Assembly (NCBI GenBank): GCA_029907105.1
Contig: JARYMM010000002.1
Location: 18,992-82,991, forward strand
Direction: 5' to 3'
DNA length: 64,000 nucleotides
DNA from: Anaerolineae bacterium
GTDB taxonomy: Bacteria > Chloroflexota > Anaerolineae > UBA3071
Part shown: in pieces, positions 14,518 to 60,172 of the stretch
Layout of the letters: each line of letters opens with the position of its first letter
Numbering within the stretch: position 1 is the stretch's first letter
The notes under the pieces: model-generated
Seen by the model: the letters and a program-made list of their open reading frames with translations, nothing else
The model's database searches: none
What the model was told of the DNA's origin: nothing
Made by a program: the position numbers and the translations under genes

Positions 14518-14546
14518 ATTATAGCATAGAGGTCATCCTGCCGGAA
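14518..14546 (-). promoter_or_regulatory. extended -10 promoter (TGCTATAAT on the minus strand) upstream of the epimerase gene
   Basis: Plus-strand ATTATAGCA at 14518..14526. The -35 is weak. Confidence 0.4.
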
Positions 14547-14647
14547 ATCCTCAACCTCAAACTCGAAACCTCAAATCCCGGTCTCGTCCTCTGGCGAGTC
14601 TGGCGGGCGTAGCGGTTTTGAAGTTTGGATTTTGAGGTTTGAAGTTC
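14545..14647. repeat. heptamer-periodic palindromic element (family F1), full hairpin copy
   Basis: Left arm AAATCCT CAACCTC AAACTCG AAACCTC AAATCCC at 14545..14579. A 35-nt centre follows. The inverted right arm GTTTTGA AGTTTGG ATTTTGA GGTTTGA AGTTC at 14615..14647 ends directly at ATG 14648. Confidence 0.8.
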
Positions 14648-17113
14648 ATGTGGGATGTGTTCATTGCCGACGCTGAGCAGCCCCCGGACCCGCTCTGGGT
14701 GGCCGAGCGTCCATCCTGGCGGGAGGAGTTATTGCGCGCCTATGTGGAGGAGTTCAGTACGCCCGGCGCGCTGCTGCTGGACCCCTTTGCCCGCCATCCG
14801 GCCTTGCTGCGGGTAGCCCGGGCGACAGGGCGACGCGTCCTGGCCTCCAACTTCGACCCCCTGCCCCTGCTCCAGATCCGCCTGAGCCTCTCGCCGCCAC
14901 CGCCGCGAGCCCTGGACAGCATCGTCTCCCGCCTGGCCGACGCGCCCAAGGCGGGCAAACCCCTCTTCCGCCATCTTGACGACCTCTATCGCATCTACTG
15001 CCCGCGCTGTCAGCGTGTCCTGGCGGCCGATTACTTCGTCTGGGAAGGAGGCGTACCGGTAGAAAAGGGCTTTCATTGTGCCCGGTGTGGGGAGGAAGGC
15101 GCCGCGCCGATGACCGCCCAGGACCTGGACATCCAGGTCGCCGTGGAGGAGAAAGGCGTGACCTATTGGTGGCTGCGGCAGCGGCTGGCCGATGCGGAGA
15201 ATGAAGAGTTCGGCAAGCGGGTGGCGGAGCTTCTCGATCTGTACACGCCGCGCAACCGCTATGCTCTCGCCGAGCTGATGCTGCAGGCCGAGACTCTCTT
15301 CCTCCCCAAAGAGAAAGCGGCCCTGGAGATCATCCAGGGCCTCTGCCTGGCCTGCCTGCAACGGTGCCACTCCCTGCACAGCGAGGCCGGGCAACCCACC
15401 TTCCCCCATTCGCTGCACCGGCCGGAGCGCTTTGTGGAGCGCAACGTCTGGCGGACGTTCGAGGCCGCCTATCGCACGCTGCGAAGCTGGCCCGAGGCGC
15501 CTCCGGCCACCTGGGCGGCCAGCCTGCCGGCGTTGTTTCAACCTGTTCCTGGCCCGGACTTTGGCCCGATGCTGACCCTGCATCGTACCAGCCGCCTGCT
15601 GGTCGAGGCGTTAAGGCCATATCCCCGCCTCAGCCTCATCTGCACCGACCCGCCGCGTCCCTCCCTGGTTGCCCACACCCTGGCCTTTCTCTGGAGTGGC
15701 TGGCTTTTGGGGAGGGAAGCGACGCAGCCCTTGCGCCCGTTGCTGCGGCGGCGCACTGCGGACTGGGAGTGGTACAGCGAGGCCATGGCCGGCGTCTTCG
15801 GGGCGCTGAGCCGCCTGCTGGCCGATGGCGGGCGGTTGCTCCTGGCTTTCACCGCTGAGGAGGAGAGGCTGCTGCCGGCGCTGCTCTTGGCCGCAGCGCG
15901 GGCCGATCTGGCCCTGGAGCACAGTGTCTACCAGTTTCAGGGCGAGGGGGTTCGCGGTGAGCGCGTAACCTGCCGGCTGCTTTTCCGCCGTCATCCCCGG
16001 CCGCTTCGCCGGTCATCCGAGTCGGAAGAGGCGGTCAAACGCTGGGCGGAGGACAGCGCGCCCACATTTCAGGAAGAAGGGGCAAAGGCGGCCCGGGCGG
16101 CGCTGCGAGCTCGAGGGGAGCCGGCCTTCCCCTCCTGGCTGCAGGCGGCCATCGTCACCCACTGGGGCAGCAGTGGGCTGCTGCGAACCGTGCCGCTCCG
16201 CACCTGGTCCTTCAGGCCGCTGTCCTGGCTGATGCGCCAGGTGAAAGCGGTGATGCCGGCCGAAGGGCTGGCGCCGGGTGGGTTGCAGTGGCTGGCGCCG
16301 GGGGCGGAATCGGAAGGCAGGCCCGCTCTGGCCGCCTGTTGCTGGCTGGCCGATCCCTCGTCGGCCGCCGAGCCACTGAGCCAGCGGGTGGAACTGGCCA
16401 TGGCCGACCTGCTGCAGAGGGTCGAACCCTGGCCATGGATGGAATTGCACGATGCGCTGTGCCGCCGGTTCCGCGGCCTGTTGACGCCGGATCGCCCCTT
16501 GCTGGAGGCGTGCATCGCCTCCTACGGCCAGGAGCTGAGCACCGGCTCTTGGCAGTTGCGGCCGGAAGACCGGCCCCCGGCGCGGGCCGAAGCGCGCCGC
16601 CAGATGGTCCAGTTACTGGTGCAGACCGGGCAACGCCTGGGTTTCGACGTCTGGCTGGCGGAGGGGGAGCGACCAGGAGACAGGGAGACAAGGGGACAAG
16701 GAGACAGGGGAGAAGTCACCTTGTCACCCCCTCCCCTTGGCGCCTCCTCCCCTCTGGAAGTGGTCTGGCATGAGGGCGGCGTGCCGGCCTATGGCTTCGC
16801 TCTGAGCGACACGGCGGCGCTTGCGCCGTGGCTGGAGCCGCTGCCGCCTGCGCTGGCCGATGTTCCCCGCTACATCGTCGTGCCCGGCGGGCGCAGCGGG
16901 CTGCTGGCCTTCAAGCTGCGCTGCTGTCCCGCCTGGCGCCGCCAACTGGAGGCGCACGGTTGGATGTTCGTCAAGCAGCGTCACCTGCGCCGCCTGGCCG
17001 AGGCGGAGGACCTGGACCGCGCCGGCTGGCAGGCGCGTATCGGGCTGGACCCCATTGTGGAGCGAAGCGAGGAACAACTGGCATTATTTGAAACCACCGA
17101 TCTCCACGGATGA
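14648..17113 (+). CDS. large hypothetical protein with a degenerate N-terminal methyltransferase-like motif and a C4 zinc ribbon; very Arg/Ala/Leu-rich
   Basis: LLLDPFARHPALL resembles MTase motif I (DPFxGSGT) but lacks the glycines. Zinc ribbon CPRCQ...CARCG. 821 aa. An alternative TTG start at 14639 lies inside the repeat arm. Confidence 0.6.
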   Translation: MWDVFIADAEQPPDPLWVAERPSWREELLRAYVEEFSTPGALLLDPFARHPALLRVARATGRRVLASNFDPLPLLQIRLSLSPPPPRALDSIVSRLADAPKAGKPLFRHLDDLYRIYCPRCQRVLAADYFVWEGGVPVEKGFHCARCGEEGAAPMTAQDLDIQVAVEEKGVTYWWLRQRLADAENEEFGKRVAELLDLYTPRNRYALAELMLQAETLFLPKEKAALEIIQGLCLACLQRCHSLHSEAGQPTFPHSLHRPERFVERNVWRTFEAAYRTLRSWPEAPPATWAASLPALFQPVPGPDFGPMLTLHRTSRLLVEALRPYPRLSLICTDPPRPSLVAHTLAFLWSGWLLGREATQPLRPLLRRRTADWEWYSEAMAGVFGALSRLLADGGRLLLAFTAEEERLLPALLLAAARADLALEHSVYQFQGEGVRGERVTCRLLFRRHPRPLRRSSESEEAVKRWAEDSAPTFQEEGAKAARAALRARGEPAFPSWLQAAIVTHWGSSGLLRTVPLRTWSFRPLSWLMRQVKAVMPAEGLAPGGLQWLAPGAESEGRPALAACCWLADPSSAAEPLSQRVELAMADLLQRVEPWPWMELHDALCRRFRGLLTPDRPLLEACIASYGQELSTGSWQLRPEDRPPARAEARRQMVQLLVQTGQRLGFDVWLAEGERPGDRETRGQGDRGEVTLSPPPLGASSPLEVVWHEGGVPAYGFALSDTAALAPWLEPLPPALADVPRYIVVPGGRSGLLAFKLRCCPAWRRQLEAHGWMFVKQRHLRRLAEAEDLDRAGWQARIGLDPIVERSEEQLALFETTDLHG
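16671..16720 (+). repeat. GGAGACAAGGGGACAAGGAGACA-type repeat (family F3), in-frame inside the 824-aa gene (encodes ...ERPGDRETRGQGDRGE...)
   Basis: Shares a 20-nt identity with the reverse complement of 55831..55872. Confidence 0.7.
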
Positions 17114-17198
17114 CACGGAGGCGGGCGGTTGGTAACGTCCGTGATGCCTGGCCTTTGGGTCGTAAGTGCCGCCGGGTGCATTTCAGTTTTTTGGAAAT

Positions 17199-18361: not shown

Positions 18362-18397
18362 GTTGTCGTTCCTCCTGAGTTGTTGTTAGCTGCGTGC

Positions 18398-19688: not shown

Positions 19689-20603
19689 ATGAGACGATTG
19701 CTTTTCCTCACCCTCATCGTGGTCTTGTTGCTGGCAATGCTGCCGGTCACAGCCGCGGCCGCCCCAATGGGATCTGGATGCACCCCCCTCTACCACCGGG
19801 TGCAGCGAGGGGAGACCCTTTCCAAGATCGCTGCTCGCTATGGTGTCAGCGTATGGGCCATCGCCAGTGCCAACGGCATCAAAAACATCAATGTCGTCTA
19901 TGTTGGCCAACTGCTGGTCATCCCCTGCGCTGCGACGCCTCCGCCTTCCTGCATCCACATCGTGCAGCGCGGGGAGTGGTTGAGCCAGATCGCCCGCCGC
20001 TACGGGGTCAGCGTGTGGGCCATCGCCAGCGCCAACGGCATCTGGAATCTCAACTACATCTATCCGGGGCAGCGGCTGGTCATCCCCGGCTGCAAGCCGA
20101 CTCCGCCGCCACCGCCGCCGAAACCGCCTGCCCCGCCTTCACCGCCGCCCTGCCCACAGCCGTGTCCACAGCCTTGCCCACAGCCATGTCCACAACCCTG
20201 CCCGCAGCCCTGTCCGCCGCAGTGCAGCATCACGCCGGTGGAGGGCTTCGGCCGCGTGTGGACCCAGAACGCCACCGTGCGCCAGAAGCTGGGCTGCCCC
20301 AAAGCAGCGGAGTACTCCGTGGACGGCGCTGAGCAACAATTCCAGCAGGGTATTGTCATCTGGCGGGGGGACATGGAGAAAGTCATTGTTCTCTACCATA
20401 GTGGGCGCTGGGGCACGGAAGACGATCCGTGGAAGGCTTGCCACTGCTACCATCCCCTGATCCCCAAGCTGGGCTGGCCGACCACGGGCCGTTGGGAGGG
20501 CAGGATTTCGGTGCAGGATTTCGAGGGCGGCACCATGCTCTGGACCCCCTGCGGTGGCATCTACGTGCTCTACAACGACGGTACGTGGAAGCATTACGAC
20601 TAA
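19689..20603 (+). CDS. secreted protein: signal peptide, two LysM domains, Pro-rich linker with a (PQPC)6 repeat, and a C-terminal domain of unknown function
   Basis: Starts MRRLLFLTLIVVLLLA.... Has two (VQRGETLSKIA) LysM modules and the linker PPPPPKPPAPPSPPP-CPQPCPQPCPQPCPQPCPQPCPPQC. AAAGGAGG lies before the ATG. Confidence 0.75.
   Translation: MRRLLFLTLIVVLLLAMLPVTAAAAPMGSGCTPLYHRVQRGETLSKIAARYGVSVWAIASANGIKNINVVYVGQLLVIPCAATPPPSCIHIVQRGEWLSQIARRYGVSVWAIASANGIWNLNYIYPGQRLVIPGCKPTPPPPPPKPPAPPSPPPCPQPCPQPCPQPCPQPCPQPCPPQCSITPVEGFGRVWTQNATVRQKLGCPKAAEYSVDGAEQQFQQGIVIWRGDMEKVIVLYHSGRWGTEDDPWKACHCYHPLIPKLGWPTTGRWEGRISVQDFEGGTMLWTPCGGIYVLYNDGTWKHYD
20148..20225 (+). repeat. 12-nt tandem repeat (CCNTGYCCRCAR)x6 encoding (PQPC/CPQP)6
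   Basis: Read directly from the sequence. Confidence 0.85.
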
Positions 20604-24123: not shown

Positions 24124-26769
24124 TCAGGGAGCAAGCTCGATGGCTTTCAAGATCACATATTCACCGCGCAGAAGCCCGAAGGGGCCGCGGCGGGCGGGGA
24201 TGCGCTGGCCGTCGCTGGCCCGTTCCAGGGCGACGACGAGCCGGTAGCGGCCAGGCGGCGCGTCAGCGGGGACAGTCAGCTCGTGGCGGTCGCCCACAGG
24301 GTAATCCGTCGCCCAGAGCGAGGTGGGATAACGGCCATCCACCGGCCGGCCCGCGGCGCGGGCCACGATGCGGTCGCCTGCGTCCAGCAGTTGCAGCACC
24401 ACCAGATAGTCGTCCACGTACGGCGAGGGACGGGGACGCCAACACAGCTTGACGGGGATGACATCGCCGGGCCGCAGCCGCGTGGCCGGGCTGTAAGCTT
24501 CGAGCAGTTCGATATAGTCGAAGCGGGCCAGCGGGCGCTCGCCAGGCCTCATGGACGGCTCCTCGGGCAGGGTGATCTCCACGCCGCCCAGTTGCAGGCG
24601 ATGGCCATCGGCCACGGAGAGGCCATCTTCGGAGACCGCAGGCAGCGGTTCAGCCATGGCCGGGTCATACAGCACCAGCTCGACGCTGTACCGGCCGGGA
24701 GGCGTATCCCCAGGCACAGGCAGGCGCACAGGCTGGCGTTCAACGCCCCCCGCTGGCCAGCGGGAGGTGGTATAGAGGCTGCCCAACGGGCGCTCGTCCG
24801 GCGGCTGGCTCCAGACGCGGCCCTGGGCATCCACCAGGCGCAGCGAGGTGGCGTAGTCGGCGGCCGGAGGCTGGCGTACCTGCCAAAAGAGGGCCGTGTA
24901 CAGCGTCTGCCCGGCGGCAAGGGTGCCGCAACAGGGCGGGACGTAGAGCGTGAACAGGTCGCCGAAGGCAGCGCGGCGGGCATCGGCCGGCGGCTCAACA
25001 GCACGCTGGCGGGGCAGCACCCCCTGCACCCGCATGTTGGCCTCGCCAGTGAAGACCCGATCCTCGAACAGCTCCCCATAGGCGTCCAACAGGCCCCGGA
25101 TCACCCCCTGCGGGTCGTTGACCGTGTCGTAGATGCGGTAGTGCCACAGGCGAGGATGGGTGGCCAGGAGCAGGGCGAGCTTCTCCTTCGCCAGGTCGCC
25201 GGGCAAGGCGTAAAAGTCGGACGCCGGATCGCCCCAGCCCAGGCGGGGGTCGCCGTCAATGTGCCCTGTCTGCACGATGACCGCGCCGTCGGCGGAAGCC
25301 GCTGCTGGGGTGTAGTCGCTCAGCCGCCCGCGCCAGGCGATGGGCAACTGCAAGTAGGTCAGCAGCGCCGTGTAGCTATAGCCGGCGTTGACCAGGATGA
25401 CGTCACCGGGCCGCCACTGTTCGCTCAGCAAGCGTGCGGCGGCGCGGTGGTCGTCGCTGGCGTAGCGCGGGTCGCCCCACAGGTTGTGCAGGGAGAAGCC
25501 GGAAGCGGCGAGGATGACGGCCAGCGCGCCGACGGCCAGCGGCCGCCTCCAGCGCCGCCAGCGGAGGAGAGCCACAATGCCTGCCGCCAGGACCAGGCTG
25601 AAGGGCGGTGCGTAGGCGAAGACGTAGCGGACGTGATATAGCGGCGTGAACAAAGAAGCCAGGAAGACAAGCAGCACCGGGACGAGAGTATGGATGGCCA
25701 GGGGAAAGGAAGGAAAGGAGGGAAAGGAAGGGACGATCTCTTGCATTCCCTCCATTTCCTTCTCTTCCTTCGTTTCCCTTCTTAGAAGCCCAAGTATGTA
25801 AAGGGCAGCCGTCATGACTAAGAGCGGCCACACGCGTTGCGGTTCCACGGATTGTCCGAAGCTGAGCGCACTCCAGGTTTCCGTCAGCATGTCCCACAGC
25901 CCGGTAAAGGTGCGCCAGGGCGGCACGGGCGGGTCGGTGGCCTGCCGCCAGGCGATGGGCAGCCAGGGTGCGTACAGGAGCAGAACGGCGGCCTGGGCGA
26001 GGAACCAGGCCCGAAGCCGGAACCTGGAACCTGAAACCTGGAACCCTCCGGGCCGAGCGCCTCGGCCGACGCCTCGGCGGAGGCCCTCAGGGCGAAGCCT
26101 GGAACACGCCACTACGATGACCCATAGATTAAGGGCGACGAGGAGGAAGGCGAAGTAGTAGAGAACGTAGAGGCCAGCGGCAGCAGCGAGGACGTAAAGG
26201 ATGAGTGCGCAGCGGTCAGGGGTCAAGGGATAGGGGTTAGGGGAGGTTCCCTTTGGCTCAGAACCTGAAACCATCTGGGGGCTCACGAAGTGGATGATGC
26301 ACCGAAGACAGATCAGCCCCAGCACCGCGCCGAGGGTGTACATGCGCACCTCTTGCGCGTACCAGACGTGGAAGGGGGAGATGGCCGTGAGCGCTGCCGC
26401 CAAAAGCGCCGTCGGCTCATCGTACAGGCGGCGGCCCAGGGTGTAGATGAGCGGGATCAGCATCATGCCGAAGACGAGGGAGAGGAGCGCAGCAGCGAAC
26501 TCCAGGCCGTGGCCGTCGGCGTCGGCATGGCCGGTGGGATAGCCGAAGAGAAGCAGCCAGCCGCGCAGCAGCAGATAGTAGCCGGGCGGATGGATGTCGC
26601 CGGCGGTGTGGGCGATGAGGGCGGGCACGGGCTTGCCCGCCAGGTGCACGCTGACCGTCTCGTCGTACCAGAGGCTCTGCGCGCCGAGCCGGTGCAGGCG
26701 CAGGCCAAAGGCGGCCAGCAGGATGAGCAGCAGGATCAGGCGAGAGCGAGCAGCGGCATGGCGAACCAT
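24124..26769 (-). CDS. GT39/GT83-family (ArnT/PMT-like) membrane glycosyltransferase with a large C-terminal extracytoplasmic domain
   Basis: N-terminus LILLLILLAAFGLRLHRLGAQSLWYDE...DIHPPGYYLLLRGW. Multiple transmembrane helices. 881 aa. Contains an in-frame F1 repeat insertion. Confidence 0.65.
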   Translation of the reverse strand: MVRHAAARSRLILLLILLAAFGLRLHRLGAQSLWYDETVSVHLAGKPVPALIAHTAGDIHPPGYYLLLRGWLLLFGYPTGHADADGHGLEFAAALLSLVFGMMLIPLIYTLGRRLYDEPTALLAAALTAISPFHVWYAQEVRMYTLGAVLGLICLRCIIHFVSPQMVSGSEPKGTSPNPYPLTPDRCALILYVLAAAAGLYVLYYFAFLLVALNLWVIVVACSRLRPEGLRRGVGRGARPGGFQVSGSRFRLRAWFLAQAAVLLLYAPWLPIAWRQATDPPVPPWRTFTGLWDMLTETWSALSFGQSVEPQRVWPLLVMTAALYILGLLRRETKEEKEMEGMQEIVPSFPSFPSFPLAIHTLVPVLLVFLASLFTPLYHVRYVFAYAPPFSLVLAAGIVALLRWRRWRRPLAVGALAVILAASGFSLHNLWGDPRYASDDHRAAARLLSEQWRPGDVILVNAGYSYTALLTYLQLPIAWRGRLSDYTPAAASADGAVIVQTGHIDGDPRLGWGDPASDFYALPGDLAKEKLALLLATHPRLWHYRIYDTVNDPQGVIRGLLDAYGELFEDRVFTGEANMRVQGVLPRQRAVEPPADARRAAFGDLFTLYVPPCCGTLAAGQTLYTALFWQVRQPPAADYATSLRLVDAQGRVWSQPPDERPLGSLYTTSRWPAGGVERQPVRLPVPGDTPPGRYSVELVLYDPAMAEPLPAVSEDGLSVADGHRLQLGGVEITLPEEPSMRPGERPLARFDYIELLEAYSPATRLRPGDVIPVKLCWRPRPSPYVDDYLVVLQLLDAGDRIVARAAGRPVDGRYPTSLWATDYPVGDRHELTVPADAPPGRYRLVVALERASDGQRIPARRGPFGLLRGEYVILKAIELAP
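26001..26107. repeat. family F1 element (half hairpin plus conserved 43-bp core) inserted in-frame in the GT39 gene
   Basis: Heptamers CGGAACC TGGAACC TGAAACC TGGAACC are followed by the core CGGGCCGAGCGCCTCGGCCGACGCCTCGGCGGAGGCCCTCAG. The core is identical at 42/43 positions to 53820..53862. It encodes ...LRPEGLRRGVGRGARPGGFQVSGSRFRLRAW... in the glycosyltransferase. Confidence 0.8.
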
Positions 26770-26855: not shown

Positions 26856-26894
26856 GAAAATGTCACCCTGAGCGCAGCGAAGGGTGACATTTTC
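26856..26894. repeat. perfect 14-bp inverted repeat GAAAATGTCACCCT-(11)-AGGGTGACATTTTC, related to the interior of family F2
   Basis: The loop GAGCGCAGCGA matches CCTGAGCGCAGCGAA in the 17199 element. Confidence 0.6.
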
Positions 26895-29109: not shown

Positions 29110-29111
29110 AA

Positions 29112-29897
29112 ATGCGAAAAGACATCGTCAGACAATGGGTCAATGTGCTGGCATTGGTCGTGACCTTCGTTATCAACTCGTTGGCCGCGGCCCTGCCCCT
29201 GGGCGGGCTGACCACGGGAGAGATATCCGATCTCTTCCCTGTCTACTTCACGCCCGCCAACTATGTGTTCAGGATCTGGTTCCTGATCTACGCGGCACTG
29301 TTTGGTTTCATCGTCTACCAGGCTCTCCCTTCGCAACGGGAGAACCCACGTCTGCGCCGCGTCGGCTACCTGTTTGTCCTCAGTGCTCTGGCCAATACCG
29401 TCTGGCTGCTGCTGTGGCACTTCTGGCGCTTCCCGCTCAGCCTGGTGGCCATGATCGTGCTGCTGCTGACGCTGATCGTCATCTACCTGCGCCTGGGCAT
29501 CGGCCGCACCAGGGTCAGCACGGCCGAGACCTGGCTGGTGCGCGTGCCCTTCAGCATTTACCTGGGCTGGATCACCGTGGCCACCATCGCCAACGCCACC
29601 ACAGTCCTGCAGTATTTCAACTGGAGCGGCTGGGGCCTTAGCCCGCAGGTCTGGACGGTGATCATGCTGGCCGCGGCCACGGTCATCGGCGCGCTGGTGA
29701 GCCTGAGGCGGGGCGATGCGGCTTACATGCTCGTCCTCGTCTGGGCCTTCGCCGGCATCGCCGTGAAGCATGCGGCCACGCCCGTGGTGGCCATCGCCGC
29801 CTGGGTGGCCGCGGCGCTGGCCGCCGTCATGCTCGTTGTGGGCGTGCTGCTGAAAAGGGCGAGAGGCGGGGGACGAGAGGCGAGAAGCGAGGCGTGA
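29112..29897 (+). CDS. TspO/MBR-like tryptophan-rich membrane protein with a C-terminal extension
   Basis: Five or more transmembrane helices and high Trp content. FTPANYVFRIWFLIYAALFG and YLGWITVATIAN resemble TspO TM1 and TM5. AGGAGA ribosome-binding site; the start follows the carH stop by 2 nt. Confidence 0.5.
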   Translation: MRKDIVRQWVNVLALVVTFVINSLAAALPLGGLTTGEISDLFPVYFTPANYVFRIWFLIYAALFGFIVYQALPSQRENPRLRRVGYLFVLSALANTVWLLLWHFWRFPLSLVAMIVLLLTLIVIYLRLGIGRTRVSTAETWLVRVPFSIYLGWITVATIANATTVLQYFNWSGWGLSPQVWTVIMLAAATVIGALVSLRRGDAAYMLVLVWAFAGIAVKHAATPVVAIAAWVAAALAAVMLVVGVLLKRARGGGREARSEA

Positions 29898-30035
29898 GAG
29901 GCGAGGGGCAAAGATGAGCATCGTCCTGCTGGAAGGCCAGCGGGGTGTGCCGCGCTGCCTGCGGGAACTGGGCTCACCTTTCGTTTCCCGGAAGCGGAGA
30001 GGGCCCTGTGCGACGTGCTTGGAGCAGCGTGACAG

Positions 30036-39239: not shown

Positions 39240-39725
39240 ATGGCCAAAAGAGTACAAATCAACACACCAGCTCCAGACTTCACCCTGGAGGATTTCCGCG
39301 GGCAGGCTGTCAGCCTGGCCGATTTCCGCGGCCAGAAACACGTCTTCCTGGTCTTCAACCGCGGCTTCGCCTGACCCTTCTGCCGCCGGCACATGGCGCA
39401 GTTGCGCCAGGACTATGCGGAGTTCACGGCCCGAGATGCCGAGATCGTGGTCGTCGGCCCAGAGGATGCGACGGCCTTCGAACGTTACTGGACGCAGGAG
39501 AAGCTGCCTTTCCTTGGCCTGCCCGACCCCCAATCCAGCGTGCTCAAGCTGTACGGCCAGGAGGTGAACCTCTTCAAACTTGGCCGCATGCCGGCGCAAG
39601 TCCTGGTGGACAAGGACGGCACGGCCCGTTACGTGCACTACGGCCACTCCATGAGCGACATCCCCTCCAACGAGGAGTTGCTCGCCCTGCTGGATGAGCT
39701 GAAGTCCGCCATCGGCGCGCAATAG
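39240..39725 (+). CDS. PRXL2/AhpC-TSA_2-type thiol-disulfide oxidoreductase with in-frame TGA (codon 45) at the first Cys of its CxxC motif; candidate selenoprotein (UPFC)
   Basis: ATG 39240 is preceded by GAGGGGAG. The sequence ...HVFLVFNRGFA-TGA-PFCRRHMAQL... continues in the same frame into ORF 39393..39725. A hairpin lies 20 nt downstream of the TGA. Confidence 0.6.
39372..39374 (+). other. in-frame UGA, putative selenocysteine codon
   Basis: Occupies the Cys position of the RGF-C-P-x-C redoxin motif. Confidence 0.55.
39395..39408 (+). promoter_or_regulatory. hairpin GGCGC-AGTT-GCGCC, putative bacterial SECIS apical stem-loop
   Basis: Lies 20 nt 3' of the UGA. Shares the loop context GCAGTTGC with the hairpin after the second UGA. 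Confidence 0.4.
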
Positions 39726-44995: not shown

Positions 44996-47900
44996 TCAAG
45001 GCCTGGACGGGCGCTGACGCGCCGCCTTCAGCTCCCGCACGCGCCCACGGCGATCAATCTGGAAACGCCGCACGTAGCGGGGCGGCAACTCGAAAGCAAA
45101 ACGTGAAGGGCCGCGCAGGAAACCATCGCCCCGATCGCGGGTGGAACAGAGATAGAGCCGTTCCCTGGCCCGCGTCATGCCCACGTAAAACACCCGCCGT
45201 TCCTCGGCCAGCGCGGCTTCCTGCCCCTCCTGCAGCGTCGTCCACAGCGGCAGGTTCTCTTCCTCCACGCCGATGATGATGACCACCGGAAACTCGGTGC
45301 CCTTGGCGTTATGCAGGGTCATCAACGTCACCCGGTCTGGCCGGGTCTCGTGGGCGAAGGTGTCCACGTTGACCACCAGCGCCTGATAGTCAAGAAAGGC
45401 GGAAAGGGAACGGTCTGCGCTGAAACGCAGGAAGGCGGCCACCTGCTGCTGGAACGCCTCCCGCAGGCGATCCCAGGCTTCGTCCACCAGCGGTGGCGGT
45501 TCCTCCGCCTCCAGCCGTGCGGCAAGCAAGGTCAGCCTCTCCTCCGCCTGTGGCCGCAGCTCCCGCACCCGTGCCAGACCCACGATCTCCCCCGAACGCT
45601 GCACGACCCGTCGCGCCGCATTGAGCAGGGCCGCCATCGGGATCATTCCGCCATCCGCATTCCGCTTTTCGCAATGCAGCTCCAGCAGTCCCAGGACGGC
45701 CAACGGCAACAACTCGGGCAGAGCACGCAACGCCGTCTGCCAGCGGTTCTCGGCCAGCAAACGCTCGAAGAGCGCCGCTACCTGGCGCACATCCCCGGCC
45801 GCGCGGTGCTCCACCCGCTCTCCCAGGCCGAAATAGCGCAGCAGGCTCTCCAGACTGTAGCTCGCCGGCGCATCCGGCCCATCGCGCAGCAGGCGGCGGG
45901 CCAGCGTCAACGTGTCCAGGTACGGGTTGCGAAAGCCCCGTCCCAGCAACCGCCCGGCCTCGCGGTCGAGAAAGCGATTGTCGAAGCCTTCGACATTGTG
46001 CCCGACCACGGTGTCGGTGCCGACGTAGGCCAGGAAGCGGGGCAGCACCCTCTCGATGCCCTCGGCGTCCCTGACGTCTTCCCAGCGCAATCCGTGAACC
46101 TGGGTGGCCGCTTTGGGAATGAAACCCTGTTCCGGCCGCACCCTGGCGTAGAAGGGTTCCCCGGCCGGCCTGCCTCCCCGCATGGCCATCCCACCGATCT
46201 CGATGATCTCATCACGTCGGGCATTGGTGCCCGTGGTCTCCAGATCGTAGACGACGAAAGAACCTTCGCCCAGCCGCTCGTGGGCGGCCAGCAGGTCCTG
46301 GGCGAAACGGTAGGCAACCACGCTGCACGGAGTTTCGGGTTCCAGGTTCCGGGTTTCAGGCTCCAGGCTCCAGGCTTCGGGTTCTGAGGCCGGGCTTCTG
46401 GCCTCGAGTCTTAAACCCCCGGCTTCGGGGATGAGTTCAATGTCCAACGGGCGGCCCAGGTAGTGCTGCAGGGTGTGCTCCAGGATGGCCGCCGCGCAGG
46501 CGCCGTCGAGGGTAGCCGGCGCAGTCAGCCGGAGGCGGGCACCCGCCTGGAGTTGGTCGCGCAGCCGTCCAGCCTCCTCGGAAAACGCGCATCCGCTGGC
46601 CCAGGTGCGCCATTTCTGCCATTCTCCCCGCTCAAAGGGACTGCGCCGCTGCTCCAGCAGGGTGAACAGCTTTTCCATGATGACGTCTACGGCCTCCGCG
46701 CTGGCCGGTTTCAACTCCTCCTCGAACAGGCGCAGAAAGCCTTGCAGATTGGCGCGGGTGAGCGGGCTGAGCTCGGGGAAGGCCTGGGCACGGCGGGCCA
46801 GATCGGCCAACCCCACGGCGTGGAAGTCCGCCAGCCTTTGCAACTGCATCACCGTCAGCTCGTCGGCCAGCGTCTGCGGGAAGTTGAGCGCTTCGAGGAT
46901 GGCCTGGTCGTCGGCCAGCGAGCGAATGAGGTGCAGGTAGCGCACCACTTCCCGCGCCCCCGGTTGCTCGAAGAAGTTTTTCTTGCGCACCCGCTGCAGC
47001 GGGATCTGCTCTTGTCCCAGGTATCCCTCCAGGTCGTCGGCCAGTTGATGGGTGCGATAAAAGATGGCGATGTCCCCGCAGGCATAGCCATGCCCGTCGG
47101 CCAGGCGGCGGATGAGACGGGTGATCAGGCGATGCTCCTGTGCGACATCGGCCAGCAGATAGTGATGGATGGGAGCCCCGCGGCCCCGGCTGGTGTGCAG
47201 AAACCGCCGGCGCTGCGGCGACCGCTGGCGGGCGATCATGTTCTGGGCAGCATAGAGAATGGTCTCCGTGCTGCGATAACACTCGGTGAGTTCGATCACC
47301 CGCGGGTGATAGCGGGCGATGAACTCGTCCACCAACTGCGGCTGCGCCCCTCGCCATTCGTAGATGGACTGGTCGTCGTCGGCCACGGCCATGACGTCGG
47401 CCCCTGGCGGGCACAGCAGGGTGAGCAGTTCGTATTGGGCGCGGTTGATGTCCTGATACTCATCCACCAGCACGTGCGGCAGCAGGCGTTGCAACTCCTG
47501 GCGCACCTCCGCCCGCTCCCGCAGCAGGCGCACGGTTTCGCCGATGAGATCGTCGAAGTCGAGGGCCCGGCGGGCACGCAAACCTTCGGCATAATCGGCA
47601 GCCAATTCGGCCCACAGTGGATCCCCGACGCTTTCGCCCGAGGCAGCTCGCGCCAGATCGCGCAACGCCGCTTTCTCGTAGCTGACGAAATCCCGCAGGC
47701 GATAGACCGGGTACAGCTCCTGGCTCAGGTTGCGCCGCGTGATGACGCTCCGCCAGATGGCGTCCTGCAGTACTTCGTCGGCGACGATGAAATCGGGCAG
47801 CAGGCCGATGGCCGCGCCATGCCGGCGCAGGATGCGCAGGCAGGCGGCGTGAAAGGTGTGGATCCAGATGTCTGCTGCCGCCGGCCCCAGCAGGTGTTCC

Positions 47901-52709: not shown

Positions 52710-52907
52710 GATGGGCGGACAGGAAAGACACGGTGTTGCCACGTTGATCGTCGCAGGTTGCCTGTGGGGTGCTGAACAGGAGGTTTGCTCATGGCAGAGA
52801 AGGAAAAGATCCCCTCTTGCGTGCAACCAGCAGCCGGCCCGTTAGTGCCGGCACCGAAGCTCGCCTCCGCCAAAGGCGAGCCGGCAACCGAGAAGGAGGT
52901 ACCTGAG

Positions 52908-53498
52908 ATGATCGCACGTGTGGGCAAGGAAGCGCCGGATTTTGAGACCAATGCCTTTGTGGACGGAGGCTTTAAGAACATCAAGCTGTCGGACTATCGC
53001 GGCCAGTGGGTGGTGCTCTGCTTCTACCCCGGCGACTTCACCTTCGTTTGACCGACGGAACTGACGGCAGTTGCCGCCAGGTATCCGGAGCTGAAGGCGT
53101 TGGGCGTCGAGGTGCTGGCCATGAGCGTGGACAGCGTCTTCGTTCACAAGGTCTGGCAGGAAGAAGAGCTGTCCAGGATGATCGAGGGGGGAGTTCCCTA
53201 TCCCATGCTCTCCGACCGGGGCGGGCGCATCGGCACCGTCTACGGAGTCTACGACGAGGCCGCTGGTGTGGACATTCGGGGCCGTTTCCTGATTGACCCC
53301 GATGGCGTGATCCAGGCCATGGAGGTCCTGACACCGTCTGTGGGCCGCAACCCGGACGAGCTGGTCCGCCAGGTCAAGGCGTATCAGCATGTGCGGGAAA
53401 CGGGCGAAGTCACCCCCTCCGGCTGGACACCAGGCCAACCCACCCTCAAACCAGGTCCTGGTCTGGTGGGCAAGGTCTGGAAGGTGTGGAAGCCCTGA
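52908..53498 (+). CDS. AhpC/Prx1-type peroxiredoxin with in-frame TGA at the peroxidatic cysteine ([14 protein letters not shown]); candidate selenoperoxiredoxin with no resolving Cys
   Basis: ATG 52908 is preceded by AAGGAGGT. ORFs 52785..53051 and 53100..53498 share a frame across TGA 53049..53051. A hairpin lies 13 nt downstream. Confidence 0.65.
53049..53051 (+). other. in-frame UGA, putative selenocysteine codon
   Basis: Replaces the Cys codon of the universal peroxiredoxin motif DFTFVCPTE. Confidence 0.6.
53065..53076 (+). promoter_or_regulatory. hairpin CGGC-AGTT-GCCG, putative bacterial SECIS apical stem-loop
   Basis: Lies 13 nt 3' of the UGA. Loop context GCAGTTGC is shared with 39395..39408. 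Confidence 0.4.
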
Positions 53499-53736: not shown

Positions 53737-53756
53737 GACCTGATCAGTGCATGGAA

Positions 53757-53909
53757 GGGTTTCAGGTTTCAGGTTCCAGGTTCCCGGTTTCCGGACCGAA
53801 CCTGAAACCTGAAACCCTTCGGGCTGAGCGCCTCGGCCGACGCCTCGGCGGAGGCCCTCAGAGCTTGCCCTGAGTGAAGCGAAGGGGCGAAGCCTTTGAA
53901 TCTGGAACC
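53757..53909. repeat. family F1 element, most complete copy: 38-nt heptamer arm (GGGTTTC AGGTTTC AGGTTCC AGGTTCC CGGTTTC CGG), 4-nt loop, inverted arm, then the conserved 43-bp core and tail; it acts as an intergenic hairpin/terminator between convergent operons
   Basis: Arms at 53757..53794 and 53799..53817. The core at 53820..53862 is 42/43 identical to 26050..26092. The tail GAAGCCT..GGAAC is shared with 26096..26105. The metalloprotease stop and last ~15 codons lie inside the element. Confidence 0.85.
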
Positions 53910-56041
53910 GCAGAGGGCGGTCGGATCTCGAAGGTATAAGATGCCTCTTCCGTGGTCACCGGCGCCAGCGCGCTGACCACCAATACGGCCTTTCTCCCCG
54001 TCTGCCCCAGGCCCTTGATGGGCAACTGCCCGCATCCCGTATCGTCTATCGTCATGCGCTGCACGCTGAGGCTGAGGAGGCCCTGCTCGATGACCTGCAC
54101 CAGCCAGCGCTGCGGCAGGCGACCGTCAGTCAGCACCCAGCCTTCGGTTTGCCAGTCTCCCTCCCCGCTCTCGCCGTCATCGAAAAAACCCAGCGCAGGG
54201 ATGGCGATATCGTCCACGAACCAGCCGGGGTAGTTCACCGCATCGTCGGTGACGTACTCGAAACGCACCAGCACCTCCTGCCCGACATACGGGCTCAAGT
54301 CCATCCGCTCCTTCACCCACTCCGCCTCTGCCGATGTTGGCGTTTGGATTTTGGTTTTTGGATTTTGAGCTCCGGACTTCCCTGTATAGCCGACGCCGAA
54401 AGCGTTGCCCACCGGATTGTAGTCGCTGCTGTGCTCTCCTTCCAGAATGTGCCAGGTGGCCCCGCCATCGGTGGAGACCTCCACGTAACCGTAGTCGTAC
54501 CCTTCTTCGAGGTCGTACCAGAGCCAGAACTCCAGCGTGGCCTGGCTGACCTCGCTGAGGTCGAAGGCATGGGTCAGGCGGGTGTCGCTATCGTCGGCGC
54601 GGTGCGCCCACCAGGCGAAACGGCCGCTGTGCGCGGCGGTGGCTGCCAGCCGTGTCTCCGTTGCTCCGCAAAAGTCAATCACCACATCTCCCCGCCCGCT
54701 CAGCTCGAAGTAGTCGGCAGCATACTGGTGGACGGTCGTCCTTTCGCTGACAGGGTAGCTGCGATAACGGGCCTCCAGGGCCACCGGGCGGGGATTGTCC
54801 CGCTCGTAGCCGTAACGGCCATCCTCCAGCCTGGGCCTGTCCAGAAGGTTGGCGATCACCCAGTCGGCGAAGACGTCATCGAAGCGCAGGTCATAGCCTG
54901 CAGCAGCCAGTGCCTCATCGAAGCCGGCCGGCCCGTTGGCCGGCGAGGCCACCACGGCTTGCGTCAGCTCTTCGCCGAAGCGGTCGAGGAAGTAGCTCAT
55001 GAAAAGATAGGCGTTGCCATAGTGGTAGGCATTCAACTCCGGATCGTCGGTCCAGGTGGTGAGCTGCGTGTCCGGCTCCTGGCTGAAGACCACATCTGCC
55101 CCGCCGCGGGAGAAGCCGTTCAGCTCCGTGGCCAGCTCTGAAAGCCCCTCGTTGACCCAGGTCTCCTCGTTGCGGTCGTTGGCCCAATGGATCATGTGCT
55201 GGAACTCGTGGGCCAGCGTGCCATCGTAGAAGGCGGTCCCCGGCGGGTTGTTCTCCAGGTTGATGTAGAAGATCTCCCGCTCGTTGGAGTAGGGGTTGGC
55301 CAGGCGGGAGAACTCATCGGCAGAGGAGAAGTAACCGGCCACGCTGTCGCCCAGGTTGGTGGCGTTCAGGATGGTCAGATGCACATCGTTGTCCACGCCG
55401 GGCGACCATTCGGAGCCGAAGAAGGCGCGGTTGGTGGGGTAAGTCCGCTCCTCGAAGCGCCGCGCCGAGCGCTCCAGGTCGTCCAGGTCCACGTCCACCC
55501 CCTTCTCCACCCACATGTAGACGTGCGGCAGCTTCACCAGCAGCTCCGCTTCGATCTGGAAGTGCTCTTCCGTGTCCACGTTGCCCAGCCAGAAAGTCTC
55601 CACATCGCCCACCTCGTAGTGGGGCGGGGTGGCGTTGACCACCACGGGGATCTCGCCGGCGTGGTGGCGCAGGCGCAAGGCCAGGTCGCGCAGGTCCCGC
55701 GTGGGCAACACGGCCTGCGCCAGGTGTTCCTCGGTGCTGGGCGCGGGTGTGGCCATGGCCTTCGCGGTGGGTGTCGGCGCCGGCGTATCTGTGACGAGAG
55801 GGGGAGACGGGGAGAGGGGGAGACCTTCTTCCTGTCCCCTTGTCTCCTTGTCCCCTTGTCCCCCTGTCTCAGAAGGCGTGGGCGTGCGTGTGGGCGTCGG
55901 TATCGCTGTCGGCGTCGGCGGCTGACAGGAGACGAGCAGCGAGGTCATCAGGCAAACGGCTGCCAGGCAGCAGCAGGCGAGGATGACCAATGTGACAAGG
56001 AGGATGATGAGATTACGGTTGGTGGTGCTCATTGATGCCAT
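53858..56041 (-). CDS. secreted/membrane-anchored zinc metalloprotease (HExxH; InhA/M6-like) with a Pro/Thr-rich linker
   Basis: Has HEFQHMIHWAND...NEGLSE (HExxH plus downstream Glu). N-terminal transmembrane anchor. Linker TPTAIPTPTRTPTPSE. 727 aa. Confidence 0.65.
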   Translation of the reverse strand: MASMSTTNRNLIILLVTLVILACCCLAAVCLMTSLLVSCQPPTPTAIPTPTRTPTPSETGGQGDKETRGQEEGLPLSPSPPLVTDTPAPTPTAKAMATPAPSTEEHLAQAVLPTRDLRDLALRLRHHAGEIPVVVNATPPHYEVGDVETFWLGNVDTEEHFQIEAELLVKLPHVYMWVEKGVDVDLDDLERSARRFEERTYPTNRAFFGSEWSPGVDNDVHLTILNATNLGDSVAGYFSSADEFSRLANPYSNEREIFYINLENNPPGTAFYDGTLAHEFQHMIHWANDRNEETWVNEGLSELATELNGFSRGGADVVFSQEPDTQLTTWTDDPELNAYHYGNAYLFMSYFLDRFGEELTQAVVASPANGPAGFDEALAAAGYDLRFDDVFADWVIANLLDRPRLEDGRYGYERDNPRPVALEARYRSYPVSERTTVHQYAADYFELSGRGDVVIDFCGATETRLAATAAHSGRFAWWAHRADDSDTRLTHAFDLSEVSQATLEFWLWYDLEEGYDYGYVEVSTDGGATWHILEGEHSSDYNPVGNAFGVGYTGKSGAQNPKTKIQTPTSAEAEWVKERMDLSPYVGQEVLVRFEYVTDDAVNYPGWFVDDIAIPALGFFDDGESGEGDWQTEGWVLTDGRLPQRWLVQVIEQGLLSLSVQRMTIDDTGCGQLPIKGLGQTGRKAVLVVSALAPVTTEEASYTFEIRPPSAVPDSKASPLRFTQGKL
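54339..54375. repeat. family F1-like heptamer stretch (GGCGTTT GGATTTT GGTTTTT GGATTTT GAGCTCC) in-frame inside the metalloprotease gene
   Basis: Encodes the AQNPKTKIQTPTS segment. Confidence 0.7.
55801..55872. repeat. family F3 repeat (reverse complement GACAAGGGGACAAGGAGACA...) in-frame inside the metalloprotease gene
   Basis: Encodes SETGGQGDKETRGQEEG. It pairs with 16671..16720, which encodes ETRGQGDRGE. Confidence 0.7.
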
Positions 56042-59000: not shown

Positions 59001-60172
59001 GCCACTTCCAGGCCCCCCGGCAGCCGTTCCCAACGTTCGCCGCCGTCCAGGGAGCGATACAGGGCGCGGTCTGTGGCCAGCAAGAGAGCGGCGGGGTCGC
59101 CGGGAAGCCAGGCCAGGGCCTGTGCGCTGCCCGGCAGGGGGTCGCCGGGCAGCTCCCGCCAGGTGGCGCCGCCGTCGTCGCTGCGCAGCAGGCGCGTGGC
59201 GGTGAAGCCCTCGCCCGTCTCCGGGCAGGTCAGATAAAGCCGGGACGGGAGCACTTTGCCTCTGGATACGGCGATCAGCGTCTTCTGTCCCACCGGGCAG
59301 CGGGGCAGTGTGGCTTCCTGCCAGCTCTGTCCGCTGTCGTTGCTGATGAAGAGCCCGCCATAGGTGACCAGGTACAGCCGTCGGGCGTGCTGGGGGTCGA
59401 GCACGAGGTCGGTGAGGATGCCGTCGGGTGGCTGCCCGGACGCCAGAGCCTGGAACTCCTGCCAGGTGGTGCCGTTGTCGTCGCTGCGGTAGACGAGGGT
59501 GCGGGGGGATGCGGCGGCTTCCACGGCCCCCACGTACAGGGCGGCGCCATCGCTGCTGCGGCCGATGGCCAGGACCTTGAGCCGCCGGTAGGCAGGTGCC
59601 AGGTCCACTTTCTGCCAGGTAGTCCCGCCATCGCCGGAGCGGAGGAGGCCCTGGAACGGCGTGAGTTCTTCGCCATCGCCTGCCAGTCCGGCGTAGAGCT
59701 GGGCGGAGAACGAATCATAGGTCAGCGCCGTGATCTTGCCGTAAGGAAGGCTGTTGCCGGCGGGCTGCCAGGTATCGCCGCCATCGGTGGAGCGGTAGAG
59801 GGCCTGGGCCTGGCGGAGGGTGCCCCGCGCCAGCCATTGGGCATGGTCGTCCCCGCGTGTGCATTGCGTGGCGGCCACTGCCCACAGGCGGTCGGGCTGG
59901 CGCGTGTCCCAGGTCAGCAGGGTGACGGTGCCCGGCGGCCCATTCAGCGCCTGCCACAGCGGTTCCGGGGGCGGCGCAGCATGCACAGGCGCCGTCAGGG
60001 CCAGGGCACACAAAATCCAAAGCTCAAAGCTCAAAATCCAAAGCTTATGGCGAATGGGACGAAGGATGGCGAAAGAGACGATCGGTTTTCGCGTCTTTTG
60101 TGGGGTTTCGAGCTGTTCGCAGGCGGTTTTGAGGTTTGAACTTTGAGCTTTGACATCTAAAGAATTGTTCAC
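56069..60172 (-). CDS. very large secreted BNR/Asp-box-repeat beta-propeller protein (sialidase/xyloglucanase/Ycf48-like folds), ~1370 aa
   Basis: At least 13 S-x-D-x-G-x-T/S-W repeats (STDGGDTWQ, SGDGGTTWQ, SDDNGTTWQ, ...). Start proposed at GTG 60172 overlapping the upstream stop (GTGA). The signal peptide region is partly built from an F1 repeat arm. Confidence 0.65.
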   Translation of the reverse strand: MNNSLDVKAQSSNLKTACEQLETPQKTRKPIVSFAILRPIRHKLWILSFELWILCALALTAPVHAAPPPEPLWQALNGPPGTVTLLTWDTRQPDRLWAVAATQCTRGDDHAQWLARGTLRQAQALYRSTDGGDTWQPAGNSLPYGKITALTYDSFSAQLYAGLAGDGEELTPFQGLLRSGDGGTTWQKVDLAPAYRRLKVLAIGRSSDGAALYVGAVEAAASPRTLVYRSDDNGTTWQEFQALASGQPPDGILTDLVLDPQHARRLYLVTYGGLFISNDSGQSWQEATLPRCPVGQKTLIAVSRGKVLPSRLYLTCPETGEGFTATRLLRSDDGGATWRELPGDPLPGSAQALAWLPGDPAALLLATDRALYRSLDGGERWERLPGGLEVAGATALLARPAQPGSVFAATGHGLYLSPDAGEHWQPTGVGLPPNSKLRALLTSPFPPGTITVALQWAHAAFGQPLVSLLSSDDGGQSWRTLATGPWEDVRALTQHPKWASHLFVATSRGLVWSADSGTTWAEVSLDAHPVQALAFDPDDADTLYAGTYGGVYRSTDGGRTWMASGLEPLPVHDLAVTAGGDLYAATQSSGEKQGGLYRSSDGGQSWERLTTAARGLETTSVRRVLLDAANPEKVYIAPSGAGLYRSGDGGESWEASHAGLPAGSDILSLLQTADGTLWASRDGGGVYRSTDGGQRWQNVAAGLGENLVLALAESHGERSGLLAATDTAGLWALNPGEEAQPPPSPQAVDARIEIVWPHGGAPVQEATLANLGLRLFWPGSLVPPPCHWTPRVEVWQAVNTEPARLLKPAEPRSVEGRPFPFWELNDVDVSLARDGQSTLYFLVRVPGVETATSIWAHGADPRTYFPQQDTPTGIATAPPEAVEARIQIVWPHDGLGHEQPAERADWANVTVALFEPETGRSVPVDWEPAGLTLYGAWNQGTGKPLATKAEKRLVRRGAITFPVWDFNNVDVRAARNPWNKLYLWAEVEGVTTYPTIWAHGADARTYFPLEDEPIVGCGVNAPRPPLTSTVNGAMVYVGDTATLLAEALAATRPDVAPASSGSGLVSGEAADALRALLASPGRGLVFQRGTQEYLFIGEGAGPVAVAALGEWVYLLWPENGELWQQWWASGTGMWEALRRPPQAVRSAYGEKGLELGIAGDRLGSRRQAHYQLLRLCASQISSSGRIAGHWEPVWTWWDAPPGSWGGVDGQVQFTGRGLEQLRLTGAPPDDFVAAPRIFAEIGDYSKQRVGAVWERQGDSYVRVTAQLQQTPMSVLSQFIAALREGDLDAAAERVSDQALVEAALGLGWSLPRPEGDRLLATGGYLEAEGEPIEFFSEGDSAFHFRVHFRRDVTDWRISAIEPLPPRE
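60011..60154. repeat. family F1 element with inverted heptamer arms (CAAAATC CAAAGCT CAAAGCT CAAAATC CAAAGCT ... GGTTTTG AGGTTTG AACTTTG AGCTTTG AC) overlapping the 5' coding region of the BNR gene
   Basis: Arms at 60011..60045 and 60125..60154. The minus-strand translation of the arm gives HKLWILSFELWIL within the predicted signal peptide. Confidence 0.8.

Follow-up and report, generated by a model that had tools for sequence, protein, structure and literature searches.

Small hairpin sequences nested in heptamer arrays and mini-transposons were reportedly described by Elhai et al. in 2008 as the SDRs of the Nostocaceae. They are said to measure 21-27 nt, to keep a conserved hairpin and to be confined to this group. 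Tandem heptanucleotides as such are known as STRR of heterocystous cyanobacteria, and heptameric simple sequence repeats occur in excess in bacteria (PMC4692102, citing Mazel 1990 and Mrazek 2007). In Xanthomonas, GGGAATC repeats number hundreds per genome, with 70-75 convergent inverted pairs and 89-93% in intergenic position; the arrays vary strongly in length and sequence among related species at the same intergenic sites (PMC4692102). Geobacter metallireducens carries elements of four heptanucleotides (GGACCGG) in 49 copies within and between genes (PMC2700814). The Rickettsia RPE are palindromic, about 150 bp long and inserted in frame in unrelated housekeeping genes with one conserved peptide and frame (Ogata et al. 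2000, summarised in PMC10969869), and the palindromes of REP/BIME and REPIN-RAYT systems, 20-40 nt in length, are joined into mosaic intercistronic elements (PMC3733652, PMC3116915). Here we describe heptamer arrays and a 26-nt palindromic core in a stretch of 64,000 nt of an Anaerolineae bacterium of the Chloroflexota (contig JARYMM010000002.1), called the window in the following. With moderate confidence we explain them by two stacked layers in an Anaerolineae clade, namely tandem arrays changing in place and a separate palindromic insertion.

The G+C content of the window is 64.6%. Its RsmA/KsgA and its InhA-like protease are 100% identical to the NCBI proteins MDH7484817.1 and MDH7484866.1, respectively. 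With Tandem Repeats Finder (TRF) 12 non-overlapping arrays of period 7 were detected, compared to 1.9±1.4 (maximum 6) in 100 dinucleotide shuffles. Arrays of period 14 (3 vs. 0.5) and period 21 (4 vs. 0.04) were also more frequent than in shuffles, and three successive RGNTTYM units with at most two mismatches gave 19 matches in the window at 0.24 expected. A former interpretation of this stretch (sequence-only reading) had listed six copies of one repeat family. All six intervals are indeed 7-nt periodic beyond chance (TRF rows 26019-26045, 46338-46374, 53758-53791, 53799-53816, 54343-54367, 60018-60035 and 60135-60153), but the count was too low. At least 19 elements are present, about one per 3-4 kb, with units mostly of 7 nt and in some octamer and nonamer hairpins of 8-9 nt. 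Open reading frames (ORFs) with Pfam-supported identities contain at least 10 of these roughly 19 elements.

Syntenic DNA of relatives was reached through homologues of KsgA, the protease and GT39; L-numbers denote loci of relatives or loci bearing the core. In 175 kb of the relatives' syntenic loci, 69 arrays of period 7-8 were found, with a unit GC of about 52% compared to 64.6% for the window. Period 7 is the prevailing array type of close relatives, whereas unrelated control loci rarely contain such arrays.

The claim that full copies consist of two inverted arms is correct for the copies at 14545, 53757 and 60011, which fold as two-armed hairpins at the DNA level (Table 1). The copies at 46331 and 54339 are single arrays folding no better than shuffles, and the copy at 26001 folds only via its core. 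For the best inverted array pairs, z values of -3.4 to -9.3 were obtained. Arms of the form RGNTTYM, formerly assigned to the whole family, occur at 26001, 46331 and 53757 and also at the unlisted element 250-313, but not at 14545, 54339 and 60011 with the units TTTGAGG, TTTGGAT and AGCTTTG, respectively. A single family defined by RGNTTYM was rejected, as this pattern recovers the GGTTYCR group only. The idea of one repeat family is also given up, since unit sequences differ among loci and arrays persist at their sites while the units change. Across the 175 kb, the commonest unit groups are the GGTTYCR type (at least 15 loci) and the CACG type (at least 12 loci); many unit types were seen once.

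The turnover of units at fixed sites was found by comparison with relatives. The array in rsmA/ksgA is located between ...DLVSR and YKVVANLPYY, and the site is occupied in relatives down to 79% protein identity. At this site L010 has 15 additional nt, the left arm is decayed in L011, and L013 shows an (ATCACGC)x3 expansion, its other arm being composed with AACCTGA units. Only a short sequence without array was found here in L014 and other relatives at 73-75% identity. The array behind uvdE comprises five units in the window, fewer in L010 and none in L013; in L011 a hairpin of 9-nt units is nested in it and divides it. The hairpin of the hydrolase/radical-SAM spacer (3538-3592) has a counterpart in L010 that differs in sequence. 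The spacer between EF-G and the radical-SAM gene contains (GCGTGAT)n/(ATCACGC)n arms in the window, (ACGTAAG/ACGTGAA)n/(TTTACGT)n arms in L010 and an (ATTGGAT)n array in L011; between window and L010 both arms have thus changed together.

Comparable results were obtained for the GT39 gene and for the region of the protease gene. All three variable loops of GT39 hold arrays, and the window, L057 and L058 differ in each of them. The number of GGTTYCR units in loop 1 is two, four and eight, respectively. Loop 2 of L058 contains a longer (GGTTCCG)n array only, and in loop 3 one arm is left in L057 and another hairpin is present in L058. The hairpin 53754-53820 also exists in L061 and L059 with unit differences in both arms. 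Its stem is perfect over 23 bp in the window and measures 20 bp with two mismatches and one extra unit in L061. At the tip a compensatory double change was detected, CCGG-AAA-CCGG in the window vs. CCGC-AAA-GCGG in L061 (CCGGAAACCGG vs. CCGCAAAGCGG). No hairpin was found at this site in L055 and L056. An unrelated (ACCCCTA)n stands at the site of the octamer element 55796-55868 in L061 and L059 (92-94% identity). In general, arrays vary mostly by gain, loss and replacement of units at one site, and the arms remain complementary. This variation points mainly to change in place. The elements are lineage-specific; identical segments in the orthologues of all relatives, which would have spoken against the former interpretation, were not found.

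The repeats are short and of low complexity, and their source is a metagenome-assembled genome (MAG), so that artefacts of assembly or ancient low-complexity protein linkers had to be considered. Arrays at the same sites were found in five independent assemblies from different samples; therefore, they are not assembly artefacts. The data also support nucleotide-level elements in the genes instead of conserved protein linkers, because the arrays are intergenic as well, one DNA is translated in more than one frame and the sites vary among orthologues, those at 73-77% identity being empty. Altogether, we consider artefacts or ancient linkers extremely improbable.

The hairpins could, in contrast, be selected RNA or DNA structures, acting as transcript stabilisers, attenuators, terminators or in translation control at start codons, with the intragenic copies as spill-over. 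They are kept at intergenic positions across species with compensatory sequence change, and several abut stop or start codons. As formerly noted, the intergenic copy at 14545 ends at the start codon of the 824-aa (amino acid) gene; this hairpin would pair the GAGG upstream of ATG 14648 with CCTC of the other arm. However, the bidirectional terminator proposed for the 53757 copy has to be dismissed, as no T-tract follows the hairpin. None of the heptamer-arm hairpins was among the matches to the terminator consensus (GC-rich stem and T tract) in the window, and such sites were not enriched over shuffles. Neither the window nor 10 core-bearing loci, the mosaic repeat described below included, gave an Rfam match at the gathering threshold. 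Furthermore, the placement is inconsistent (divergent, convergent, intercistronic and coding), and single arrays and intragenic copies make up about half of the elements. Stem transition mismatches (G-T vs. A-C) amounted to 8 in sense and 23 in antisense orientation, i.e. without G-U bias on the sense strand, in counts that are not independent and are inflated by repeated units. We give little probability to selected structures as general explanation. Because of the missing terminator and Rfam matches, the mixed positions and the lack of a sign of RNA selection on the sense strand in this weak test, we regard the elements as neutral or selfish DNA whose effects are incidental; they may play a part in transcript stability.

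A second type of sequence is found in two of the arrays. The sequence-only reading described for the copies at 26001 and 53757 a common 43-bp core plus tail as part of the heptamer elements. Both copies contain the 26-mer GCCTCGGCCGACGCCTCGGCGGAGGC without any change, and past a 24-nt indel they have the tail GGCGAAGCC in common. Over the extended stretch 47 of 49 positions are equal; the 43-bp string formerly given is off at one position. The core is an interrupted GC-rich palindrome (GCCTC-G-GCCGA-CGCC-TCGGC-G-GAGGC), forming a 15-bp stem with the flanks CTGAG/CTCAG. Both copies belong to larger composites A and B (Table 1), which are inserted at an identical phase of a GGTTYCA array. Within its right part, composite B repeats a portion of its own shell as a 24-nt inverted duplication. 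L061 and L059, with 92-94% nucleotide identity and from different samples, are without exactly the 78 nt of composite B, and at the junction their array runs uninterrupted from ...GGTTCAAA into GGTTTCAGGTTCCAGG.... In GT39 of L057 (85-88% amino acid identity) the shell is kept, and exactly 27 nt with the core, corresponding to the nine amino acids GLRRGVGRG, are missing.

The exact 26-mer was identified at nine genome loci, mostly of Anaerolineae or Chloroflexota MAGs, and at 40 metagenome loci; a scan of viral contigs gave none. It is located in heptamer or decamer arrays (L003, L004, L006) or in a shell of the window type (L019). At about 30 of the metagenome loci it is placed at the tip of a mosaic repeat of 100-230 nt with the order GCCCGACGG-CCACGCCGCGAG-CGGC-26-mer-CTCGCCGCGTGG-CGGTTTA-CCGTCGGGC (e.g. 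L034 3720-3955, L048 and L043, among L015-L052). This repeat was detected in several metagenomes, on up to 12 contigs in one of them, and the core tips a long hairpin in it; all copies examined were selected via the core itself. Genes with a core copy encode ArgC, MurC, PEP carboxylase, a MurT-like ligase, an S1-domain protein and an AAA ATPase. The core is read in at least five frames (ASAEASAEA, ASADASAEAS, LGRRLGGGL, GLRRGVGRG, PPPRRRPRR), and in ArgC its copy corresponds to about 25 amino acids inserted relative to a Thermus structure. Because of its own presence/absence polymorphism and its own distribution, the core appears to be a discrete nested insertion separate from the heptamer elements, and not a part of them as formerly assumed. 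The occurrences in L002/L051 and L009 were not counted as elements; they belong to Ala/Glu-rich coding sequence without shell and are chance-like. The locus L003 (NZ_JADHVT010000148.1), labelled as Acidovorax sp. MAG, contains a heptamer-arm hairpin enclosing the core and is identical to the metagenome contig L037 over the aligned stretch. The element type suggests that it is a Chloroflexota contig in the wrong bin.

The presence or absence of the 78-nt composite and of an octamer hairpin among genomes with 92-94% identity would also be expected if all elements were non-autonomous and MITE- or REPIN-like, mobilised by a transposase encoded elsewhere (e.g. of the RAYT/IS200 type), with the heptamer arms as recognised ends and the unit types as sub-families. 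The nearly identical left arms of the two octamer elements, the shared insertion phase of both composites within one array type, the exact 26-mer across many species and contexts and its place at the tip of a mosaic repeat family fit this as well. However, a Pfam scan of the 64-kb window assigned identities to about 50 ORFs and no transposase was among them. The sole recombinase is a XerC/D-like integrase (61781-62701), and its gene order is kept in a relative. There is no clear target-site duplication, as the junction of composite B shows a 2-nt GG ambiguity only; its termini match as inverted repeats at a weak 6 of 9 positions, and the heptamer hairpins have no defined ends. The core is without the GTAG/CGTC tag of REPs. 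Most arrays keep orthologous sites while their units change, and repeated independent insertion predicts otherwise. A common origin of all elements by transposition is therefore rated as rather unlikely.

For arrays inside proteins, the placement of four copies in the ORFs of GT39, the UvrD-like helicase, the InhA-like protease and the BNR protein could be confirmed. In the protease the 54339 array adds its peptide after YTGKSG; this site is empty in L056, and the array is equally long in L061 and L059. The last 19 residues of the protease, PSAVPDSKASPLRFTQGKL, are derived from the 53757 element. More distant orthologues end at FEIRPQ, and the original stop is kept in L055 and L056. In L061 and L059 the ORF crosses the hairpin and ends at a TGA of the far arm. 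The stop codon of the window gene is located inside the 53757 copy, as formerly stated, but together with about 19 instead of about 15 codons. For the BNR gene, whose GTG at 60172 overlaps the TGA of the upstream gene (GTGA), the leader from this GTG up to the conserved C(A/T)LAL..PVHA, followed by (A/D)PPPEP, equals the hairpin 60011-60154. The former assumption that a hydrophobic arm forms part of the signal peptide is supported, as one arm supplies its hydrophobic part. In the L055 orthologue, (GCAAGAG)x6 and (TGCATCC)x5 at this position encode a typical basic n-region and a hydrophobic h-region, MSKKQEARGKKQEARGEFASCILHLASCILCTLALAVPVHA. The comparison shows a leader rebuilt from different repeats in different genomes.

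The linker that harbours the arrays of the UvrD-like helicase is hypervariable throughout the homologues, and the arrays are as long in L059 as in the window. A difference of 52 amino acids to L059 was rejected as real length gap and reflects start-codon choice only: the ORF probably starts at M52, with the first 51 codons untranslated. In this helicase (44996-48130, minus strand) an RNase T/DnaQ-like exonuclease domain is placed between the helicase and the C-terminal domains, as in many homologues.

A further effect on a protein was found with the protease of L055. A (CAAATCC)x3 array at the 54339 site moves frame 0 to frame 2, and the gene (10001-12129) is split into ORFs of 568 and 145 amino acids; the identical short product is encoded on seven contigs. 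This frame shift and the secreted or envelope nature of several hosts (InhA-like protease, BNR protein, GT39) would be consistent with contingency loci, in which 7-nt slippage switches surface or secreted proteins on and off. But arrays are also present in rsmA/ksgA and in the UvrD-like helicase, the units are imperfect, hence less prone to slippage, and most intragenic arrays are equally long in close relatives. A switching function is thus regarded as very unlikely. Essential and secreted proteins can accommodate non-triplet repeats (signal-peptide region, 19-aa C-terminus, loops), but such repeats can also break a gene, as in the L055 protease.

According to the two-layer explanation, the first layer would consist of short arrays with units of 7 nt, sometimes 8-9 nt, which are AT-richer than the genome and usually arranged as two inverted arrays forming a hairpin of 20-38 bp. 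They would occupy fixed sites, namely gene boundaries and tolerant protein segments (surface loops, linkers between domains, the leader of a signal peptide and a C-terminus). Replication slippage, intrastrand template switching with correction of one arm against the other, and occasional ectopic conversion among arrays with common units may change them. Selection would act as a filter only, so that intragenic versions persist when placed in loops, in frame and without stop codons. The effects on proteins (signal-peptide region, C-terminal extension, frameshift) would be by-products. The second layer would be the GC-rich palindrome, a small discrete insertion with the 26-nt core in a composite of 54-78 nt, moved possibly by a trans-acting enzyme encoded elsewhere or by homology-driven conversion. 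Stable array positions, turnover of the units and matched arms favour change in place, and the 24-nt inverted partial duplication in composite B is an expected product of fold-back template switching.

Several points weigh against this explanation. The data on the source genome comprise the 64-kb window only. We infer slippage and template switching, and no event was directly observed. The two recurring unit families named above favour copying, and so do the octamer left arms (16669-16743 and 55796-55868), which are identical in 31 of 32 nt with one copy absent at 92-94% identity, and the common insertion phase of the composites. Furthermore, the 26-mer also equals two direct half-units of 12 nt (TRF period 12), and in L001 a longer run with 12-13-nt periodicity surrounds the core. 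Therefore, the 27-nt difference in GT39 could be a change in copy number and no insertion. The 78-nt and the 27-nt indel may each be an insertion or a precise deletion. A bolder idea is that the heptamer hairpins are a self-propagating "palindromic microsatellite", growing and spreading by a dedicated hairpin-targeting process of an as yet undescribed enzymatic or replication-linked kind and routinely creating coding sequence of this lineage such as signal-peptide regions, linkers and C-termini, and that the core is among the smallest mobile elements known outside cyanobacteria; we regard this as unlikely.

Table 1 Repeat elements and composites of the window with position, context and folding z value
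Element	Position	Context and remarks	Fold z
In-frame heptamer element, left arm (GGTTTCA)-like, right arm (CGAAACC)-like	250..313	rsmA/ksgA; encodes ...LVSRCTLQVSGPLETRNANPET... in the variable loop ahead of NLPYY	-1.9
Single array (ATCACGC/TTCACGC) x5	2709..2743	uvdE-hydrolase spacer, from last base of uvdE stop	
Hairpin, CACG-type heptamer arms	3538..3592	Spacer of converging hydrolase and radical-SAM genes	-3.4
Hairpin (GCGTGAT)n / (ATCACGC)n	4703..4784	EF-G stop to radical-SAM start; 26-nt arms, 85% complementary	
Hairpin (CCTCAAA)-like / (TTTGAGG)-like	14545..14647	Divergent intergenic region; right arm ends at ATG 14648 of 824-aa gene, GAGG 11 nt upstream of ATG	-3.9
Octamer-unit inverted repeat, GGGGACAA / TTGTCCCC type	16669..16743	In frame in 824-aa ORF; weak fold	-0.9
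Hairpin, GGAAAGGAA / TTCCTTTCC type	25702..25771	In frame in GT39 loop 3	-4.1
Direct array (GGAACCT)n	26001..26045	GT39 loop 2; host of composite A	
Composite A, 54 nt	26046..26099	Shell CTCCGGGCCGAGC + 26-nt palindromic core (26059-26084) + CCTCAGGGCGAAGCC; in-frame reading in GT39 ...PEGLRRGVGRGARPGG...	
Array (CAGGGGT)n	26210..26243	GT39 loop 1; adjoins GGTTYCA-type units, number differing among genomes	
Perfect 14-bp hairpin GAAAATGTCACCCT-GAGCGCAGCGA-AGGGTGACATTTTC	26856..26894	Upstream of GT39; not heptamer-based	-4.6
Array (GGCGAGA) x7	29858..29909	Spans 3' end of ORF 29076-29897	
Array (CATTCCG) x4	45644..45673	In frame in UvrD-like helicase; insertion of about 6 aa vs. distant homologues	
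Single array (GGTTCCA/GGCTCCA)n + two small GC hairpins	46331..46432	In frame in UvrD-like helicase; hypervariable linker between helicase core and RNase T domain	-1.2
Perfect 23-bp hairpin (GGTTTCA)n / (TGAAACC)n	53754..53820	Convergent peroxiredoxin-protease spacer	-8.1
Composite B, 78 nt	53817..53894	Shell + 26-nt core (53830-53855) + 39-nt right part; inserted in one arm array; carries protease stop codon (53858-53860)	
Rest of interrupted arm	53895..53915	Codes jointly with a portion of composite B for the 19-aa C-terminal extension PSAVPDSKASPLRFTQGKL	
Single array (TTTGGAT/TTTTGGT)n	54339..54375	In frame, AQNPKTKIQTP, loop of InhA MAM domain	-1.0
Octamer-unit inverted repeat	55796..55868	In frame; P/T-rich linker following protease membrane anchor	
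Hairpin (CAAAGCT/CAAAATC)n / (AGCTTTG)n, 86-nt spacer	60011..60154	Upstream gene's stop to conserved part of BNR signal peptide; proximal arm encodes ...HKLWILSFELWIL	-3.5

The segment 26856-26894 is absent from L057, and its loop motif CTGAGCGC...CGAAGG is similar to the composite shell. In L010 (8600-9000) about 440 nt of extra GC-rich and hairpin-rich DNA were found upstream of EF-G; the window is without it (6900-7062).

Other repeats of the window are located in genes of different kind. A tandem repeat of 183 nt (12465-12980, 2.8 copies, 92% matches) represents the three LysM domains of an L,D-transpeptidase, and a 12/24-nt repeat (20147-20215) belongs to another LysM/LGFP protein. These two repeats are ordinary coding sequence with no relation to the heptamer arrays. 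At 8348-9258 (minus strand) a HEPN/nucleotidyltransferase gene pair of the toxin-antitoxin type is encoded, which is conserved in L010. The CCACTTT x2.4 repeat in the overlap of these genes (8806-8822) is also conserved in L010 and is therefore probably coding sequence and no element.

In two thioredoxin-fold genes, which the ORF list shows as truncated, an in-frame TGA occupies the expected position of the active-site Cys. These are a 1-Cys peroxiredoxin (ORF 52839-53498, plus strand; TGA at 53049-53051) with the context DFTFV-TGA-PTE and an AhpC/TSA-like protein (plus strand; TGA at 39372-39374) with GFA-TGA-PFC. Both are candidate selenoproteins. In L059 and L061 (92-94% identity) the peroxiredoxin gene is without about 374 nt including the TGA codon (compared to window 52962-53336) and appears to be partly deleted.

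In Anaerolineae MAGs, gene prediction is likely disturbed by the arrays (wrong starts, ORFs fused or split, spurious low-complexity regions), and so is assembly. For distinguishing strains, the arrays may be useful as sensitive markers.

The sequence-only reading did not recognise a named element family. Close analogues have been described in other phyla, but each known family fails on at least one defining feature, e.g. taxon, intergenic bias, tag, conserved peptide or transposase. A search of the accessible literature gave no specific description of heptamer repeats for Chloroflexota, Chloroflexi or Thermoflexus. As in RPE, the elements are in frame at positions tolerated by the fold (rsmA/ksgA, UvrD-like helicase, GT39 and InhA-like protease; elsewhere ArgC, MurC and PEP carboxylase). 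In contrast to RPE they measure 30-100 nt, and the core is read in several frames. Palindrome and other motifs are combined as a mosaic like in REP/BIME, but the core starts with GCCTC, has CGTC only in the loop of the reverse strand and is not restricted to extragenic DNA; no RAYT gene was found in the 64-kb window. Presence and absence with intact empty site, observed for composite B relative to L061 and L059 and for the 27 nt relative to L057, is a feature of MITEs, from which the system differs by the lack of a transposase among the window ORFs. The comparison with SDR draws in part on PMC5861425. Like these, the 26-nt palindrome is nested inside heptamer or decamer arrays and stands at the tip of a mosaic repeat, a likeness in size, hairpin and nesting. 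Unlike SDR, it is usually enclosed in the shell of 54-78 nt, is maybe a dimer of a 12-nt unit and has an Anaerolineae host; it is at best an analogue.

The closest likeness of the arrays is to heptanucleotide repeats of other bacteria. With STRR they have in common the dispersed tandem heptanucleotides, several units per genome and the unknown function; for STRR an origin by polymerase slippage was proposed, according to PMC4692102. Differences are the host (Chloroflexota, Anaerolineae, 65% GC), the arrangement of most arrays as self-complementary pairs and the position of about half of them in frame in genes. The Geobacter elements are likewise both intragenic and intergenic, but form one conserved family recoverable by BLAST with four fixed units; here, number and sequence of the units are locus-specific. 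Convergent inverted pairs forming stem-loops and variation at fixed sites are shared with the GGGAATC repeats of Xanthomonas. These consist of one G-rich, quadruplex-prone unit, in contrast to the many unit types without G-tracts and the frequent location in ORFs described here. If the pattern is genome-wide, a poorly understood type of repeat is extended to the Chloroflexota. For this type, the comparisons document change in place, joint change of both arms, a nested tiny palindrome and clean empty sites at 92-94% identity.

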